From a virus (Duplodnaviria; Heunggongvirae; Uroviricota; Caudoviricetes), in IMG/VR virus record IMGVR_UViG_2623620505_000001: a stretch of 64,000 nt of DNA; one strand, given 5' to 3'. This document shows positions 8,898-41,926 of the stretch, piece by piece. Made by a program: the position numbers and the translations under genes. The notes under the pieces are model-generated. The model was given only the letters and a program-made list of their open reading frames with translations. It was not told the DNA's origin and ran no database searches. Every line of letters begins with the position of its first letter. The stretch's first letter is position 1.

Positions 8898-8914
8898 AAA
8901 TTAATTAGAGCAAT
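8898..8914 (-). promoter_or_regulatory. C1 repressor operator (16/17 match to consensus) upstream of ssb
   Basis: aaattaattagagcaat, reverse complement of ATTGCTCTAATAAATTT with one mismatch. Confidence 0.7.
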
Positions 8915-34948: not shown

Positions 34949-35818
34949 TCATTGATTCACCTCCTGCGGCGGTTCCGGTAGAGGCATCCAGTACAAGGCG
35001 TTCCCTAACCACGATAAAGTGCCGTCGCTCAACTCCACGTATTCCCCTTGTACCTGTCCTGCCATATACTCGCCGTGCTTTGAATAAATTAAAATCCAAT
35101 CATCTTGAGCGGGCATTCGCTCACTACAGCTTATCCAACCATCCGGAGTTACCGGAACTTGCGGAATGGCTGTCTGCTCTCGAACGTCATTAGGCGCTAT
35201 AGGTTCTGCTGCCAACTGACTGGCATATTTGTTAATGGTAACGATAAGCTCTTGCTCAGCCTCATCCAGACAATCACCGATACCTCGCCTGTCACCGTCA
35301 AAATCATCGAAATCGGCACGAATCTTGGCAACCTTCTGGATTGCGGACAACACCTCACTAGGAATTACCGGATAGTTGGTTGACGTTTCCGCGATTTCCC
35401 GAAAATTATTGGTTGACGAATTCTTGTTTTCCCGAAAGTTTCCGGACTGAAGCATGGCGGCGCGGCAGGCGTTCCAGCCTCTCACCTCTGCAATAGCGGC
35501 AACAGCATCAACCGCGTACATGCTAAGAGGATTAGGCATTGGTTTTTCTTCCGGTACTACTGGAACGGGGGGAGCGGCGTAGACCTCAATAATTCCATTA
35601 TCAATAGGCCATTCTCCATCCTTGAGGTAGTCACTTGTGCCGTCAACTTGCTGTTCTGCAATGTGGAATGCACCTATTGGTTTTGCTTCCAGCGATGCCA
35701 GAGCAATTCGTGCCAGTTCTTCCGCTTCTTCTGCTGGCAGTACAACGTTGCTATCAGGTCCGTATGTTTCGCGCCACTGCTTGATTGTCAGCAGTCGCTC
35801 TTTGGTAATAGTGATCAT
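34949..35818 (-). CDS. hypothetical protein
   Basis: 289-aa ORF. Confidence 0.5.
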   Translation of the reverse strand: MITITKERLLTIKQWRETYGPDSNVVLPAEEAEELARIALASLEAKPIGAFHIAEQQVDGTSDYLKDGEWPIDNGIIEVYAAPPVPVVPEEKPMPNPLSMYAVDAVAAIAEVRGWNACRAAMLQSGNFRENKNSSTNNFREIAETSTNYPVIPSEVLSAIQKVAKIRADFDDFDGDRRGIGDCLDEAEQELIVTINKYASQLAAEPIAPNDVREQTAIPQVPVTPDGWISCSERMPAQDDWILIYSKHGEYMAGQVQGEYVELSDGTLSWLGNALYWMPLPEPPQEVNQ

Positions 35819-36402
35819 GCCGCGTTTCCTTCTTTCTTATTAACAATTACACCGTCATATATTTCATTAAGGTGCCCTCTCAACTCCATGCGCCTTAATG
35901 CAGATAACATGTAATCGCATTCAACCTGCTTATTCCCAATAAAAGGTTTATCTTCAGGGTTACCCCAACAGCAATTCCCCTTGGGCCATCCATGTACTTT
36001 CCGTACTCTTCCGTTAACAACGTGAAGTAATCCCCAGCCGGGAGGTAAATCCTCAACTGAAATAATTCCCGGCTCACTAATAAAGAATCGCCAGTCGCCC
36101 ATTCCAAGAGATGGATTTTTACGAAAACGCTTTTTTCTATCTGCCAACAAGTCAGCACGAGAACACTTCGCCTCTATCAGGCATGATGCTGAATTTCTGA
36201 ACCCCATAGCATCTGGCTGTTCTCCGGTACTGGTTACAGCTATAAAGCGGTCATGAAAACAAACCTTGAACCCGTTGCGCTTAAGGAACTTATACGCAAT
36301 CTGACAGAGTTCGCGGTGTGTTAACGCCATATCACTCTCCTTTAGTGCGCAAGTGGTTTTTCCAGCGGTTTTGCGCCGCGCTGGGCTTTTTGCAAAAACC
36401 AC
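35815..36402 (-). CDS. putative PD-(D/E)xK-type nuclease
   Basis: 195 aa; D...EAK-like segment PDAMGFRNSASCLIEAKCSRADL; weak call. Confidence 0.4.
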   Translation of the reverse strand: MVFAKSPARRKTAGKTTCALKESDMALTHRELCQIAYKFLKRNGFKVCFHDRFIAVTSTGEQPDAMGFRNSASCLIEAKCSRADLLADRKKRFRKNPSLGMGDWRFFISEPGIISVEDLPPGWGLLHVVNGRVRKVHGWPKGNCCWGNPEDKPFIGNKQVECDYMLSALRRMELRGHLNEIYDGVIVNKKEGNAA

Positions 36403-36520
36403 AATCCATCATCCCGTAATATTTCATCAACCCCATCCGTCGGTTGCTGAGTCTCACCCACTGCCAGACGCCAGGAGCGTTTCTACGAACTAACAGAATC
36501 TTTGCTTTACGGTTTTTCAT
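36332..36520 (-). CDS. small basic protein, MKNRKAK family, copy 2
   Basis: 62 aa; N-terminus MKNRKAKILLVRR; start overlaps the stop of copy 1. Confidence 0.4.
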   Translation of the reverse strand: MKNRKAKILLVRRNAPGVWQWVRLSNRRMGLMKYYGMMDCGFCKKPSAAQNRWKNHLRTKGE

Positions 36521-36693
36521 CTTACAGCGTACCCTTTCTTCCGCCTGTTCTGTGACGCAGTAGGCTTACGCTTTGCGGCAAAAGCCACCTGACCAAATGG
36601 ATGGAGTACCGCTATCTTATGGTTGCTAATAACCAGCTCCACCACACGCACAGGTCGCTGTAAAAAAAGTCGTTTTGCCTTACGGTTTTTCAT
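36517..36693 (-). CDS. small basic protein, MKNRKAK family, copy 1
   Basis: 58 aa by my manual translation (MKNRKAKRLFLQRPVRVVELVISNHKIAVLHPFGQVAFAAKRKPTASQNRRKKGYAVR); below the ORF-track size cutoff. Confidence 0.35.
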   Translation of the reverse strand: MKNRKAKRLFLQRPVRVVELVISNHKIAVLHPFGQVAFAAKRKPTASQNRRKKGYAVR

Positions 36694-36865
36694 CGCTTTG
36701 CTCTCCTGCGTCTCTTTGCTGCTCGTCGTGCCGCTGCAATACCGGTATGGCGGCGCTTTGGTGACGGGATGATGTTGTCAGCCATCAGTACATGTGGCTT
36801 TGCAATTAGCGCAGAAGCCCAAAAACGAGTCGGGTACGGTAACAAGCCGATACATGCCACACGCA

Positions 36866-37459
36866 TTACTCACCTCCTTTGATGCGAATGCCAGCGGTGC
36901 GTGGCACATTAACTTCCACGATGCGCACAGTTGGTTTGTACATCTCAATCGCTGTCAGCCAGTCAGCGCCAGTCATGCGCTTTTCTGCATCGCCATTAGT
37001 CCAATTAACCGGTACACCAATAGCCTTCATCGCGATTTCTATTTCCCCGGCAATGGCGCTTTTTCCGCAACCAGTAAAACCAGATACAACGACCAGAACT
37101 TCACCTTTGGCTGGTTTTATTTCCCGCGCTTCCAGTTCTGCTATGCGCTTACTTCCATCCGAGATAACACCTTCGTAATACTCACGCTGCTCGTTGAGTT
37201 TTGATTTTGTCTCCTCAAGCTCAACTCTCAGCTTCCCTACCGTTAGCGCAATATCCTCGTTCTCCTGGTCGCGGCGTTTGATGTATTGCTGGTTTCTTTC
37301 CAGTTCATCCAGCAGTGCCAGCGCGATATCTGGCGAAAAGTGCTTCATAAAATCGTTAAGCGCATTAATTCGCTGATCGAAGGGCATTACAGGTGCTTCA
37401 CCAGCAATTTTTGTTTTTTCAGCGATTTCACGAAGCTTTTGATAATCAATCTTGCTCAC
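36866..37459 (-). CDS. coiled-coil protein with C-terminal P-loop (Walker A GFTGCGKS)
   Basis: 197 aa; N-terminus IDYQKLREIAEK shared with the 291-aa paralog. Confidence 0.5.
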   Translation of the reverse strand: MSKIDYQKLREIAEKTKIAGEAPVMPFDQRINALNDFMKHFSPDIALALLDELERNQQYIKRRDQENEDIALTVGKLRVELEETKSKLNEQREYYEGVISDGSKRIAELEAREIKPAKGEVLVVVSGFTGCGKSAIAGEIEIAMKAIGVPVNWTNGDAEKRMTGADWLTAIEMYKPTVRIVEVNVPRTAGIRIKGGE

Positions 37460-38190
37460 TGGTTGCCTCCTTTGCGAAGCTGGGCAGCAAAGTCAACTAA
37501 CCACTCAGTCATTTCAACCTTCCCTACCAGGTCTGAACCAGGGTGCATACAGCAATCACTCTGCGCCGCTTTGAAATCCTTATACTCATATTCTTGGGCC
37601 ACCAGATTTTTTGCAGCTTCTATAGCAGCATCCACGCCCTGCGCCCGCACTTCAGCCAGGAAAGCATCGGTGGCTGGCATATTTCCTGTTGCCTTCATGG
37701 CCTCCAAAATAACCAGAACGCCATCTCGCCCAACTACCTCAGCGATAACCTCGGTGTTGTCGCCAACAACATCGCAGAATGCCTGAACTGCCTTACGAGC
37801 CAGCTCATTCTCCACTGCCAGCGCCGTGCGATTACCCTCCAGCTCTGCAATGCGCTGTTTTGCGGCATCCAGTTCAATCGACAATTTTTCCAACTGCTCT
37901 TGATGCTTCTTGTATTCCTGATATGCGTGCCAAGACTGACCTTTGCGCACACTATCAGTGATATCAGTAATCTGTTCTGGTGTTAGCGTGGTCAGTGGCT
38001 GTGATGGGAAAATAAGCACTTTCCCGGAATCCCAATCAAAACCAGCGTGAATTGACTGAACCTCAACTGAAGGTGTTGAACCAATGCTGCCAGGCGAATG
38101 AACAACGATTGTTACATCCATATCGCGACGATGGCTGTGGTTGTTGGACAAAATACGATTCACCAACTCAGAAAATTTGGAAAATTTCAT
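37456..38190 (-). CDS. modular paralog-family protein (coiled coil plus conserved C-terminal tail)
   Basis: 244 aa; PATDAFLAEVRAQ and terminal AAQLRKGGNQ shared with paralogs. Confidence 0.5.
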   Translation of the reverse strand: MKFSKFSELVNRILSNNHSHRRDMDVTIVVHSPGSIGSTPSVEVQSIHAGFDWDSGKVLIFPSQPLTTLTPEQITDITDSVRKGQSWHAYQEYKKHQEQLEKLSIELDAAKQRIAELEGNRTALAVENELARKAVQAFCDVVGDNTEVIAEVVGRDGVLVILEAMKATGNMPATDAFLAEVRAQGVDAAIEAAKNLVAQEYEYKDFKAAQSDCCMHPGSDLVGKVEMTEWLVDFAAQLRKGGNQ

Positions 38191-38510
38191 GCTGATTCCC
38201 CTTTCTCTGCTCTCTCCTGTCGGAACATCACTATCATCAGGTCGCCTTTTGTCGCTATCCTGGCTGTTGTACCTGGTTCAATGCGGCTAAGCTCAAATGC
38301 GTCATAGAACGCTTCTAATGCCTTCTGGCGTAGTTCCTGTTTGCGCCGTTTTTTCCACTGTTTTAGGAAAATGGAACCCAGCCATCGCCATGTGCGGGAC
38401 ATGATGTAAAGCCAACCGAGAAGTGCCAGACCGGTATTTAGGAGCGTATCGATCGTTATTGTCGTGTCGATATTCACTGGCTGCTTCCTTTGCGAATTTG
38501 TTCCGCCCAT
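38187..38510 (-). CDS. small membrane protein
   Basis: 107 aa with hydrophobic helices. Confidence 0.4.
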   Translation of the reverse strand: MGGTNSQRKQPVNIDTTITIDTLLNTGLALLGWLYIMSRTWRWLGSIFLKQWKKRRKQELRQKALEAFYDAFELSRIEPGTTARIATKGDLMIVMFRQERAEKGESA

Positions 38511-39349
38511 TCTTCAAGGGATTTCTCCGCATATTCACCAGACAGGCCATCAATCGGATGCGCTTCATTAGCCAACTCTTCTTTCGCTGACAAAATCATG
38601 CGTGTAACGTCGAAAACTTCACGCAAAGACTTATTGATAAATCCGTGATTGAACGCAGCAGCAAGACGGCTGGCGGTATAGTTAATCCCCTCGTTGCGTG
38701 CTTCCGCACGAATTTCAGACAGGAAAGCATCGGTGGCTGGGATTTCGACATTAGGTCGAAGCTCATAATCACAAACTCTTTCAATCCATGGTGATACTCT
38801 GTCGCATTTCCTCTTCTTGCGTTCACCGACCTTGGTTGCCTGCTGAATAATTACCCCCCAGCAAATGCTTTCGACCTCTTCGCTCCATCCATCGCAAGCA
38901 TCGCCTCTATAGTCGTCAATTGCAGCCTCAGCAGCAGCGATAGCCTCCTCAGCAGTTTTGTGACACTCGAAACTAAATTCAGAGCCATATGAGAAATACA
39001 TAGCCCCGGCCTTCAGCGCCGCATTCTCCGCTGCCAGCGCCGCGAGATTAGTCTCAAGCTCTGCAATTCGACACATAGCATCAATATTTGTGTCCTCCAG
39101 GCGCTTAATTTCACCAAGCAGCTCCAGTGCAACCTTTGGGTTGAACGCGGCAACATAACGAGCGTTGTTCTCTGCATTTTTCTGTCCATCAAAGCCGGTC
39201 CATTTGATAACGTCTTCACATCGTTCATCACCGGGCGTGTGCACCGCATAAGTACCAGTATCCGTCGAAATAAATGCGACCCATTCGTCTGGTGTTGCCT
39301 TTTCTGCCGCCTCACGCAGTACCTGATAGTCAATTGTCATTCTCGCCAT
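38474..39349 (-). CDS. modular paralog-family protein
   Basis: 291 aa; IDYQVLREAAEK N-terminus, PATDAFLSEIRAE, terminal AEQIRKGSSQ. Confidence 0.5.
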   Translation of the reverse strand: MARMTIDYQVLREAAEKATPDEWVAFISTDTGTYAVHTPGDERCEDVIKWTGFDGQKNAENNARYVAAFNPKVALELLGEIKRLEDTNIDAMCRIAELETNLAALAAENAALKAGAMYFSYGSEFSFECHKTAEEAIAAAEAAIDDYRGDACDGWSEEVESICWGVIIQQATKVGERKKRKCDRVSPWIERVCDYELRPNVEIPATDAFLSEIRAEARNEGINYTASRLAAAFNHGFINKSLREVFDVTRMILSAKEELANEAHPIDGLSGEYAEKSLEEWAEQIRKGSSQ

Positions 39350-40017
39350 CCTTCACAGTTGTAATCACTACAGCCTTCAAAATCATATGGGCTGTACTGC
39401 CAGGTTATTTTTCCGCAATGCGGACAATTCCAACGCACCTTCCCGCTTCGCGACTTCTTTCTTCTGTTCTGCTCTTTCAACCAGTCAGGCATGACCAACC
39501 CTGCGCCCTGAACCATTGTTCTGCGGTTAAAGTTATTGATATTGAACGTCCGGCGCTTTGCTGCATCAGCAATGGAAAATGGCAACCAAACTATTCCTGG
39601 TTCGTTTTTGTTGGCGACGCTAAAGATGGTCGCTTTACTGAAGTCATCTGTTGGCAATCCACCGTGTTGAAGCCAGTAAACATCGTTGCCGTTCCAGCTA
39701 CCTTTTTTGTAGGCCACATACGCAGTGCAATCTGACTCAATCAGGCTTTCTGTAGGGATGTACTGGCAATCAACGTGCCACACAGCCATTGCATCCACGC
39801 TATCAGCGCAAACAGGCTGATCGATATCTCGTCCACAATTCCAGGCTTTTTGGGCTTCTTCCAGCGTGTAAACATGAGCGCGATCGATATCAGAACTGTA
39901 ACCATTGCCGTTATGGCAATGGAATGAGGCGTTATTACCCACAGTTTCACGCAAGCACATCATGTAAAAACGGTTACTCACTGGTTGCCTCCTTGGCGGA
40001 GTTGCGCTGCGATGCAT
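39337..40017 (-). CDS. hypothetical protein with C-terminal Cys cluster
   Basis: 226 aa; NCPHCGK...CSDYNCEGW. Confidence 0.45.
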   Translation of the reverse strand: MHRSATPPRRQPVSNRFYMMCLRETVGNNASFHCHNGNGYSSDIDRAHVYTLEEAQKAWNCGRDIDQPVCADSVDAMAVWHVDCQYIPTESLIESDCTAYVAYKKGSWNGNDVYWLQHGGLPTDDFSKATIFSVANKNEPGIVWLPFSIADAAKRRTFNINNFNRRTMVQGAGLVMPDWLKEQNRRKKSRSGKVRWNCPHCGKITWQYSPYDFEGCSDYNCEGWRE

Positions 40018-40217
40018 GAAAAAAAAGACTCCCGAGTGTGACAGTTAAGAGCTGGTGCGAACGCCGCGTTAAGAACGGCGGCATCACAGCCGTCATCAAT
40101 ATAGAGCGCAATTTTTTTCTCCAGGCGCGCTTTGGCTTCCTGCAGCTGCATACCCCGGCACGCACGCGGGATATAATCAGCAATTTGAGCGATAGCTTTT
40201 TCGTTCTGTTTAAACAT
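39978..40217 (-). CDS. short paralog carrying the family C-terminal tail
   Basis: 79 aa ending AAQLRQGGNQ. Confidence 0.4.
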   Translation of the reverse strand: MFKQNEKAIAQIADYIPRACRGMQLQEAKARLEKKIALYIDDGCDAAVLNAAFAPALNCHTRESFFSCIAAQLRQGGNQ

Positions 40218-40413
40218 GCTTCACCTCGATAGGCTTGATGGTGTCTAACAGCAGTCGACGGCGCGTATTTTCTGCAAAGTGGCGGCGTCCGGTATCTTTG
40301 TGGTAAAACTCATTTTTGCCGACGACCCACATCCGCTCTGTTTGGTGCAGTTTTTTTACCTGCGGACCGTCTTTGGTGATCACGGTGCCGGTATGGGTTT
40401 TTACGATTGTCAT
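40210..40413 (-). CDS. hypothetical small protein
   Basis: 67-aa ORF. Confidence 0.35.
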   Translation of the reverse strand: MTIVKTHTGTVITKDGPQVKKLHQTERMWVVGKNEFYHKDTGRRHFAENTRRRLLLDTIKPIEVKHV

Positions 40414-40496
40414 GCCACTACCTATTCGAACAGATGAACGAGACAGGCCGATGCTCGTCCACCTGAAAAACTGACGATTTGATGCATACTCACGGT

Positions 40497-41225
40497 TTAT
40501 TCCTGAATGCGCTTAAACTCGATTACCCACACCCAGGGATTAGCGTTCCAGCTTTCTTCACCATAGATGGATTCCCACAGACGCTGGAACGCAACCTTGG
40601 CCATTGCGAAATCCCCCTTGGGAGTAAGGAATGTTCCCGGGTGATCAGGAAGCAAACTTCCAGCAGGCGGAACGCCCTCATCCCTTGCATCGCATTCGCT
40701 GATATCGTTCAACCGCTCAACGCGCACGTTGGTTATTTCCAACAGGATGCGTGATGCCCATCGCGGCATGTGAATTGATGGACGCCACCCACCATCAAAC
40801 TTTTCATTCACAGTGTGAGGTTTCCAGTCGGCATCATCGGGTATCGACCATAAACCGTAATCACCAGGCTTTTGCTCACAACTGGCCCGATAAATCCTTG
40901 CTGCGTTCTTCTCATCGCCACGACAAAGGTTGTCGTTCCAGTCCACACTGCAACCATCTTCATTGCCTAATATCGCCCATGTTTCACGAACCCAAATTCG
41001 ATCGCCGACGATACCAAAGGGGCAATTGAAAACACTGCTTACACCATCAGCCCCGTACCACTGAAAACCTGCACCAATTTCCCTAACCATCACTGGTGCT
41101 TCTGGACCAACTTCCGCAGGCTGATTTTTCATTATCCGCCGCGTCTGCGTTTTCCTTCCTTCGAGGATGGCTCGGACCATCTCATCGTTGAAAATCATGC
41201 CGCGCTCTTTCACTTCGCCTTTCAT
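40497..41225 (-). CDS. hypothetical protein
   Basis: 242-aa ORF with a C1 operator upstream. Confidence 0.5.
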   Translation of the reverse strand: MKGEVKERGMIFNDEMVRAILEGRKTQTRRIMKNQPAEVGPEAPVMVREIGAGFQWYGADGVSSVFNCPFGIVGDRIWVRETWAILGNEDGCSVDWNDNLCRGDEKNAARIYRASCEQKPGDYGLWSIPDDADWKPHTVNEKFDGGWRPSIHMPRWASRILLEITNVRVERLNDISECDARDEGVPPAGSLLPDHPGTFLTPKGDFAMAKVAFQRLWESIYGEESWNANPWVWVIEFKRIQE

Positions 41226-41402: not shown

Positions 41403-41419
41403 AATATTCATTAGAGCAA
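41403..41419 (-). promoter_or_regulatory. C1 operator
   Basis: atattcattagagcaat (15/17). Confidence 0.65.
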
Positions 41420-41926
41420 TTATTGTTGGTGGAGAAGCGCGTTTTCATACTCCCTGACCATTAACGTAAGTACGCCGTGACTCCTGAAAACACGCGCCAC
41501 TTCAATCTTATCTTCCAGCGCGAACGCAATTTTACTTAGACCAATTTTCTTCAGGAGATCAATCTTTGCTGGACCGTCATTTCTGTCATCGGTGGCAGGA
41601 CGCATAGATAGCAAAGGCTCAGCCCCGTTTGTTACGTACTTCCGCAGCCAGGCTCGTGTTTTATCCCTTGCGATCTCACAGCGCCCGGTTACAAACCAGA
41701 CCGTGTAAACGTTAAATAACTGGCGCACCATATCAATAACCGGAGTGATGGGAGTATCGGTGTCACAGGCGAGATTAAACTCGTTCCAGTCCTTTGTTAA
41801 TGCACCTTTACCTGGTGGCGGAAGCAAATGCAGTCTGTCTTCAGTTGCCTCTGATATTGTTCCATCAATATCGACTATGACGATATACGGACGTTCCTGG
41901 TGTGCGTGTTTATTGAAAATACTCAA
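41420..41926 (-). CDS. HAD-superfamily phosphatase-like protein
   Basis: 168 aa; DxDGT motif VIVDIDGTIS near the N-terminus. Confidence 0.55.
   Translation of the reverse strand: MSIFNKHAHQERPYIVIVDIDGTISEATEDRLHLLPPPGKGALTKDWNEFNLACDTDTPITPVIDMVRQLFNVYTVWFVTGRCEIARDKTRAWLRKYVTNGAEPLLSMRPATDDRNDGPAKIDLLKKIGLSKIAFALEDKIEVARVFRSHGVLTLMVREYENALLHQQ

Follow-up and report, generated by a model that had tools for sequence, protein, structure and literature searches.

Three genes, here called A, B and C, on the minus strand of a 64,000-nucleotide (nt) stretch of the virus record IMGVR_UViG_2623620505_000001 (Caudoviricetes; the window, meaning this whole stretch of DNA) are very likely Ead/Ea22-Eae mosaic genes of an operon controlled by the C1 repressor, in which the shared segments would be conserved joints, the gene ends would double as ribosome-binding site (RBS) and start/stop overlap of the following gene, and the parts between would be exchanged as cassettes. 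Each of the three would consist of a head that varies, a stalk formed by a coiled coil, and a C-terminal domain open to exchange. The conserved joints would be the Ead_Ea22 N-terminus IDYQxLRExAEK (conserved as protein), the coiled-coil segment RIAELE...ALAAEN, the first helix PATDAFLAEVRAQGV and the gene end. An earlier note on this DNA had listed four open reading frames (ORFs), A to D, with shared segments, and all four were found at the positions given in Table 1, C being counted in that note as a 291-amino-acid (aa) ORF, which lies at 38474-39349.

Operons of phages and bacteria commonly have a Shine-Dalgarno (SD) sequence inside the upstream gene and an ATGA or GTGA overlap between the two cistrons, a layout associated with translational coupling. 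The same overlapping-cistron layout is seen at the B/A, C/DUF4752 and D/E junctions, with the SD 6 nt before a GTG that lies within GTGA and thus overlaps the preceding stop, and compared with translational coupling in general nothing stands out except the reuse of one 18-nt version at many junctions that are unrelated. Regarding the three GTG starts, the Pfam Ead_Ea22 model opens at residue 2 of A, the start of the DUF4752 gene is annotated in RefSeq (NZ_CP067401) and the same gene start follows the junction in 6 viral loci, and the phrog_2457 profile opens exactly at the GTG of gene E. Throughout the run 34949-40217 the last ~6 codons of each gene contain an SD-like element, the terminal residues differing from gene to gene, and ATGA or GTGA overlaps occur throughout except after A, where TAATG produces a one-base overlap and its ATG starts a 58-aa gene (36690-36866, phrog_13831).

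In B, C and D the last ten residues before the stop fit A[AE]Q[LI]R[KQ]G[GS][NS]Q, which the earlier note had taken for a docking tail common to different effector heads. More broadly, the whole decapeptide could be viewed as a functional C-terminal peptide (a docking motif, degron or oligomerisation tag) with a common partner, although this is improbable, and the docking proposal is not supported by the codons, the contexts and the predicted structure of the tail. In a survey of 27 distinct 3' ends taken from 80 viral loci and the window, the Gly codon at -4 is GGA at 27 of 27 junctions (GGA accounts for 20% of the Gly codons in the operon background), the Gly codon at -3 is GGC in 22 of 22 and the stop is TGA in all 27; at -10 and -9, by contrast, Ala is encoded by any of its four codons, and at -8 both Gln codons occur. 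Likewise B and D, identical at 9 of their last 10 residues, have four synonymous differences in AAQLR, followed by 17 nt without any difference (17/17). Thus synonymous sites are frozen throughout the last five codons, whereas the residues are free to change: the endings GGNQ, GGSQ, GSSQ, GVQS, GVRS, GVIQ and GGNR all occur, with S or V in place of G, S, I or R in place of N, and S or R in place of Q, and AAGGA plus [AG]TGA is kept in all of them. The tail is even absent in the relative P0105, which has 17 residues beyond LRQ and no GGNQ. In the AlphaFold model of the C-terminal domain of B the last helix ends at LRK, and GGNQ is non-helical and predicted to be unstructured (predicted local distance difference test, pLDDT, ~54). 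All other genes of the operon have the same SD and overlap layout with different terminal residues, which also argues against a functional peptide, as do yeast two-hybrid surveys in which no Ea22 partner was found (PMC10834534).

The portability of the junction is equally evident. An exact-match scan of viral contigs for the 18-mer AAAGGAGGCAACCAGTGA returned at least 123 sites. Upstream of them there are at least 41 contexts, among which are five or more unrelated protein families and several ORFs only 6-15 codons long. There were at least 41 downstream gene starts, of which ~70% among the matches listed are Ead/Ea22 N-termini (S[KE]I[DN]YQxLRE), and at least 82 upstream/downstream pairings. 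Frozen codons, free residues and a portable 18-mer together suggest that the 18-mer travels as the translation-initiation region of the downstream gene, stamping KGGNQ on the upstream protein. The last five codons and the stop are therefore identified, from their sequence, as the SD, spacer and GTGA stop/start overlap of the next gene, read in frame, and conservation at the protein level is confined to [FILW]-A-[AE]-Q-[LI]-R, the end of the last helix. In mechanistic terms, the strong SD and the GTG of AAA GGA GGC AAC CAG TGA would drive translation of the next cistron, and translation of the overlapping cistrons is probably coupled, the GTG starts relying on a strong SD together with termination-reinitiation. 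A general caution follows, in that a conserved "C-terminal motif" of different proteins can be the RBS of the next gene read in frame.

On the other hand, a functional peptide finds some support in the protein-level conservation of A[AE]Q[LI]R, to which the four synonymous differences between B and D and the many codon variants across families testify, and in the common tripeptide with which Ea22 proteins end. According to Dydecka et al., the C-terminus of every Ea22 protein is a basic residue with Gly-Glu after it ("+GE"), the significance of which was left unexplained (PMC7093339). The lambda ea22 gene ends in ATC AAA GGA GAG TGA (IRIKGE*) and gene A in IRIKGGE*, and the +GE motif is probably the same phenomenon at another spacing, with AAGGAG read in frame.

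The remaining shared segments lend themselves to a similar interpretation as joints. The PATDAFLAEVRA block is invariant across relatives whose flanks differ on both sides and, judged by these alignments, acts as an intragenic mosaic joint. B and C are identical at 26 of 27 nt in this PATDAFL block and at 21 of 23 nt in the tail, with dissimilar sequence between the two. When A is compared with lambda ea22, nucleotide identity reaches 92% over 193 nt of the coiled coil and 28 of 29 nt at the 3' end, and nothing is shared in the ~230 nt between, so that in the two genes the same two flanks bracket two unrelated C-terminal domains. A further block that the earlier note did not contain, the coiled-coil segment RIAELE...ALA[AV]EN, is 87% identical in B and C over 46 nt and recurs in part in A, and its ALAAEN motif is near-universal among homologues. 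The IDYQ block has 6 synonymous differences between A and C, and hence appears to be conserved by selection on the protein. As to partners, among relatives at least ten different sequences come after one and the same upstream module (for instance WLVDFAAQLRKGGNQ), and at least seven different modules come before one and the same downstream gene. Many megablast alignments to other phages stop within the tail of D (39992-39994) and within that of C (38474-38486).

Short conserved boundary sequences have been proposed to mediate homologous exchange of modules, a proposal cited in a passage of PMC3029335. Like the boundary (linker) sequences of lambdoid phages, the blocks of the window are identical at the DNA level at gene ends or domain joints, have unrelated flanks and occur with many partners, whereas the tail of the window genes is also coding sequence, RBS and start/stop overlap, and its use in recombination is putative. 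The model of modular evolution through boundary sequences is reportedly due to Susskind and Botstein, and to Clark et al. 2001. By such a mechanism, near-identical short blocks in co-resident lambdoid prophages and P1-like plasmids would act as homology arms for the exchange of heads, C-terminal domains and entire downstream genes. The junction may accordingly be regarded as a natural case in which one short sequence would act as coding sequence, translation signal and mosaic joint, useful for studies of cassette exchange.

A different origin of the blocks would be very recent gene conversion among tandem or co-resident paralogues, the blocks being leftovers without a role of their own and their SD look incidental. 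The DNA identity of the blocks (26/27, 17/17 and 28/29 nt) and the abundance of relatives at 95-99% identity in E. coli prophages and plasmids are consistent with such an origin, but the SD core and the NTGA overlap are kept in the diverged tails GVQS, GVRS, QEGEQK and SEVQS, each junction of the window has a correctly spaced start codon of a recognised gene family, and the 6 synonymous differences in the IDYQ block of A and C point to selection on the protein, which makes gene conversion alone somewhat less credible still than a functional peptide.

Several observations nevertheless weigh against reading the gene end as a translation signal and the blocks as joints. In lambda (NC_001416) the end of ea22, AAAGGAGAGTGA, has both the SD and the GTGA overlap and precedes only a 5-codon ORF, VRSVL; this retention of the element without a real downstream gene also favours a peptide function. 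The lambda end looks like a relic or vestigial cassette junction, or has another role, which speaks against a purely translational explanation. In addition, A[AE]Q[LI]R is kept as protein across many otherwise different modules and may have a peptide-level function. Alignment end-points cluster at 37630-37679 and 38700-38749, that is, at the PATDAFL blocks, in loci that were selected for containing this block, so that the break-point histogram is biased and is used as supporting evidence only. Finally, we infer recombination at the blocks from these patterns.

The significance of the shared segments was assessed by motif counts. IDYQ[KV]LRE[IA]AEK lies at aa 4-15 of A and aa 3-14 of C, and PATDAFL[AS]E[VI]RA at aa 172-183 of B and aa 201-212 of C. 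In six-frame translations of the window the tail pattern occurs 3 times and the PATDAFL and IDYQ blocks 2 times each, and each was found 0 times in 100 shuffles of the window, which places the similarities noticed earlier above chance. Pairwise, the N-termini of A and C are 31% identical over 104 aa (BLASTP, E 3e-4); between B and C, alignments of the C-terminal parts cover 90-96 aa at 26-27% identity (E 2e-4 and 3e-7). Whole-protein pairwise similarity is indeed weak and tblastn of each protein against the window found no further paralogue at E<1e-3, which would fit random or low-complexity resemblance of ORFs that are unrelated, but this reading is practically negligible: no motif arose in the shuffles, Pfam and PHROG profile matches reach E 1e-19 to 1e-75, and the blocks are kept in hundreds of homologues.

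Table 1. Positions of the genes, blocks, junctions and operator-like site discussed in the text.
Feature	Position	Strand	Remarks
Gene A, 197 aa, Ead/Ea22-like	36866..37459	-	Pfam PF13935; lambda ea22 identity; annotated ead/Ea22-like in NZ_CP067401
Gene B, 244 aa, Eae-like C-terminus	37456..38190	-	phrog_368, phrog_6026
Gene C, 288 aa from ATG 39340	38474..39340	-	Pfam PF13935, phrog_368; NZ_CP067401 start
Gene D, 79 aa	39978..40217	-	phrog_1344
3' end of A, CGC ATC AAA GGA GGT GAG TAA TG (IRIKGGE*)	36864..36886	-	SD and TAATG overlap, start of 58-aa gene
B/A junction, CGC AAA GGA GGC AAC CAG TGA	37456..37476	-	SD AAGGAGG, 6-nt spacer, GTG of A overlapping TGA of B
C/DUF4752 junction, CGC AAA GGA AGC AGC CAG TGA	38474..38494	-	SD-like AAGGAAG, GTG start of DUF4752 gene 38187-38477
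D/E junction, CGC CAA GGA GGC AAC CAG TGA	39978..39998	-	SD, GTG start of 214-aa gene E 39337-39981
PATDAFLAEVRA block of B, first helix of Eae-like domain	37642..37677	-	26/27 nt identical to C block
PATDAFLSEIRA block of C	38705..38740	-	counterpart of B block
Coiled-coil block RIAELE...ALAVEN of B	37807..37854	-	counterparts C 39023-39070, A 37130-37147; 17/19 nt A-B
C-terminal domain of A, aa 119-187	36899..37105	-	Walker A GFTGCGKS at 37058-37081; VRIVE strand
P1 C1-repressor operator-like site ATTGCTCTAATGAATAT	41404..41420	-	2 mismatches to consensus; head of operon holding A-D

Family assignments support the guess, made in the earlier note, that these are shuffled accessory genes of the lambdoid Ea/Ead type. 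The Pfam family Ead_Ea22 (PF13935, gathering score 27 bits) matches A with 98.4 bits (E 7e-28, aa 2-110) and C with 70 bits (E 4e-19, aa 5-129), and the same profile has no match in B or D; the C-terminus of B corresponds to proteins named "eae-like domain protein" by NCBI, and phrog_368 matches A (E 5e-30), B (E 2e-75) and C (E 6e-65). In A and C the Ead_Ea22 profile region is followed by a distinct C-terminal domain, the coiled coil being recognised from sequence only. In gene A an Ead_Ea22 N-terminus that includes the coiled coil (aa 1-112) precedes a mini P-loop-like domain at the C-terminal end. Gene B lacks the Ead_Ea22 N-terminus and has a head of its own (phrog_6026, aa 1-113, E 4e-54), a coiled coil (aa 113-128) and an Eae-like helical domain (aa ~172-240). 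Gene C begins with an Ead_Ea22 N-terminus and a coiled coil; its middle is variable, and its C-terminal domain is a divergent Eae-like one, which aligns to the Eae-like module of B with E 3e-7. Its start is most likely ATG 39340, giving 288 aa, rather than the upstream ATG giving 291 aa: the former is the annotated start in the 99.4%-identical NZ_CP067401 and forms an ATGA overlap with the upstream gene.

With regard to the Eae-like module, a search with the C-terminal part of B yielded 713 homologues, many with the NCBI name just mentioned, which share one plan: heads that differ widely, the ALAAEN motif of the coiled coil, a linker that varies, the near-invariant PATDAFLAEVRAQGV, a middle of which at least five unrelated versions exist among relatives, and the end [FI]A[AE]QLRKG. 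Heads, middles and C-terminal domains are thus reassorted combinatorially, in agreement with the shuffling suggested earlier. Both B and C match phrog_368, phrog_492 and phrog_614, the groups of P22 Ead/Eae-type and eae-like domain proteins, and resemble these in their C-termini, with PATDAFLAEVRAQGV, a variable helical middle and FAAQLRKG, as well as in the variation of heads, which extends over hundreds of homologues; the head of B is phrog_6026 instead of an Ead_Ea22 N-terminus. The AlphaFold2 model of the C-terminal domain of B has four helices with a core pLDDT >90. This module has no Pfam model and no solved structure, a Foldseek search of the helical domain against the PDB gave a best E of 3.5 and hence no fold assignment. 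No families were found in NCBIfam, and searches of A, B and C against PDB chains returned nothing significant and did not pick up the published C-terminal domain of lambda Ea22, in line with unrelated C-terminal domains.

Membership of D is a different matter. The four-member paralog family of the earlier note holds for A, B and C, which phrog_368 unites, and fails for D, with which the tail alone is shared. D matches only phrog_1344 (E 1e-52), and its interpretation as a stand-alone Eae-like domain was rejected as profile-profile alignment (hhalign) covers only residues 66-79. Since only these last 14 residues align, D is not a demonstrated paralogue and is, on its alignments, a small protein unrelated to the others that has only the gene-end junction in common with them.

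Comparison with better studied Ea22 proteins places A, B and C in a wider frame. Ea22 has been described as a tetramer in which a C-terminal domain that varies follows a short N-terminal segment and a coiled coil, is mosaic with several variants per genome, and exerts a pro-lysogenic effect on the lysis-lysogeny decision by a mechanism that is unexplained (PMC7093339; PMC10834534). The Ead_Ea22 N-terminal/coiled-coil signature (PF13935/IPR025153) of A and C is shared by Ea22 of lambda and by the variants V1-V3 of Shiga toxin (Stx) phages (Dydecka 2020, PMC7093339; Goddard 2024, PMC10834534). Like the window genes, Ea22 of lambda and Stx phages combines a conserved N-terminal half with unrelated C-terminal domains, exists in several variants per genome and belongs to an early repressor-controlled operon, which in lambda is the early pL-driven exo-xis region (PMC10834534), a region that the operon of the window resembles. 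Differences concern the replicon, a lambdoid prophage there and a P1-like phage-plasmid here, and the C-terminal domains, which are an alpha/beta dimer in lambda or DUF551, whereas A has a mini P-loop-like domain and C an Eae-like helical one. Moreover, the pro-lysogenic phenotype was shown for lambda and Stx Ea22, while the window genes are known here from their sequence alone. By analogy with lambda and Stx Ea22, the window proteins would be coiled-coil oligomers, expressed on derepression, that act as a scaffold displaying exchangeable C-terminal domains. The mosaicism of the Ead/Ea22 family has already been published, and A, B and C are further members; what is added by the present work is the RBS explanation of the conserved tails, including +GE, and the mini P-loop-like domain.

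The latter domain, ~70 aa long, contains the Walker A sequence GFTGCGKS at aa 127-134 of A, as had been pointed out before. The pattern as such was rejected as evidence, with one GxxxxGK[ST] found in 64 kb and 2.1 expected, and the weight of the motif comes only from its conservation across the domain family: there are 444 representatives at 50% identity, 348 of them at E<=1e-10, and G[FL]TG[SC]GKS after an EVLVxV strand is kept in nearly all of 149 diverse representatives. The domain is located N- or C-terminally in proteins of 110-623 aa, and a Pfam search of ten long proteins carrying it found no partner domains apart from one sub-threshold AAA_16. On the domain of A itself Pfam gave no family, only hits below threshold (APS_kinase E 0.047, AAA_16 E 0.099), PDB profile searches hit only the P-loop segments of true nucleoside triphosphatases (NTPases; E >= 0.02), and Foldseek found nothing for its model (pLDDT 81). 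Similar to P-loop NTPases (SIMIBI, e.g. SRP54 and dethiobiotin synthetase), to which its top fold and sequence matches are weak, it has a strand, G[FL]TG[SC]GKS and a helix, and unlike them it is too short for a complete NTPase core. The conserved VRIVE strand could be an analogue of Walker B.

It may be proposed, tentatively and as a combination that is rather doubtful, that this domain is a minimal P-loop module which would bind nucleotide or phosphate only within the Ea22 oligomer, and that the DNA-identical joints (coiled coil, PATDAFL and RBS tail) would have been selected as swap adapters. If the former were true, it would offer the first biochemical handle on an Ea22-type protein, and if the latter were true, phages could swap C-terminal effector cassettes together with whole downstream genes. 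The mini P-loop-like domain is widespread and constitutes the most interesting loose end, as well as the best route to the function of Ea22-type proteins.

As for the genomic setting, the region 36500-40500 is 99.4% identical to the E. coli IncY plasmid pXJW9B263-2 (NZ_CP067401) with 98% of its length covered, hundreds of other E. coli plasmids of ~90-100 kb, non-mobilizable, match it as well, and P1, P7, SJ46, Stx-converting and other lambdoid phages match it patchwise at 95-98% identity (megablast). With ATTGCTCTAATAAATTT, which we take to be the consensus of the P1 C1-repressor operator, 14 operator-like sites with at most 3 mismatches were found in the window, where 0.35 would be expected. 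These 14 near-matches, together with the plasmid and phage matches, identify the window as a P1-like phage-plasmid, across which the sites may be taken as a map of C1-controlled operons. The genes of interest all lie on the minus strand in a tightly packed leftward operon. Promoter-like hexamers at 41448-41419 overlap the operator-like site at 41404-41420, and no convincing terminator was found between this site and 34900. P7 has a C1 operator annotated as Op(hea) in the same place, after pap, and an Ead-like gene within its C1-controlled "hea" operon. The operator-like and promoter-like site, the P7 parallel and the stretch free of a convincing terminator thus suggest that the genes belong to one repressor-controlled operon, and from these sequence features the region is assigned as an Ead/Ea22-Eae accessory cluster in a C1-controlled operon of a P1-like IncY phage-plasmid of E. 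coli.

The operator-like sites include, besides the one in Table 1 at 41404-41420, those at 57602-57618, 25063-25079, 8898-8914 and 61124-61140. In lambda, ~190 nt separate the VRSVL ORF from ea8.5. At the far end of the gene run of the window, a 289-aa protein (34949-35818, minus strand) has a C-terminal DUF551 (E 6e-11) without an Ead_Ea22 N-terminus and matches phrog_60, which also weakly matches the N-terminus of C; DUF551 has been reported at the C-terminus of the Stx-phage Ea22 variant V2, and the 289-aa protein looks like another product of cassette shuffling. Just downstream of A, three small basic ORFs are arranged in tandem with ATGA overlaps (36332-36520, 36517-36693 and 36690-36866, minus strand). 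Both of the first two start with MKNRKAK and they are paralogues (37% identity, E 5e-10, phrog_1380), and the third, of 58 aa, matches phrog_13831 with E 2e-41. Only 36332-36520 is annotated in NZ_CP067401, and the other two appear to be missed genes. Gene E (39337-39981, 214 aa, phrog_2457, no Pfam family), downstream of D, is the counterpart of P7 Upf87.6 (upf87.6), for which the P7 record gives "putative tyrosine protein phosphatase" as its own label. Homology of the window to NZ_CP067401 stops at ~40430. Directly upstream of the 67-aa gene F, NZ_CP067401 has a gene of the phosphoadenosine phosphosulfate reductase family, and at the same place the window carries a 242-aa gene (40497-41225, phrog_874), a further cassette difference in the same operon.

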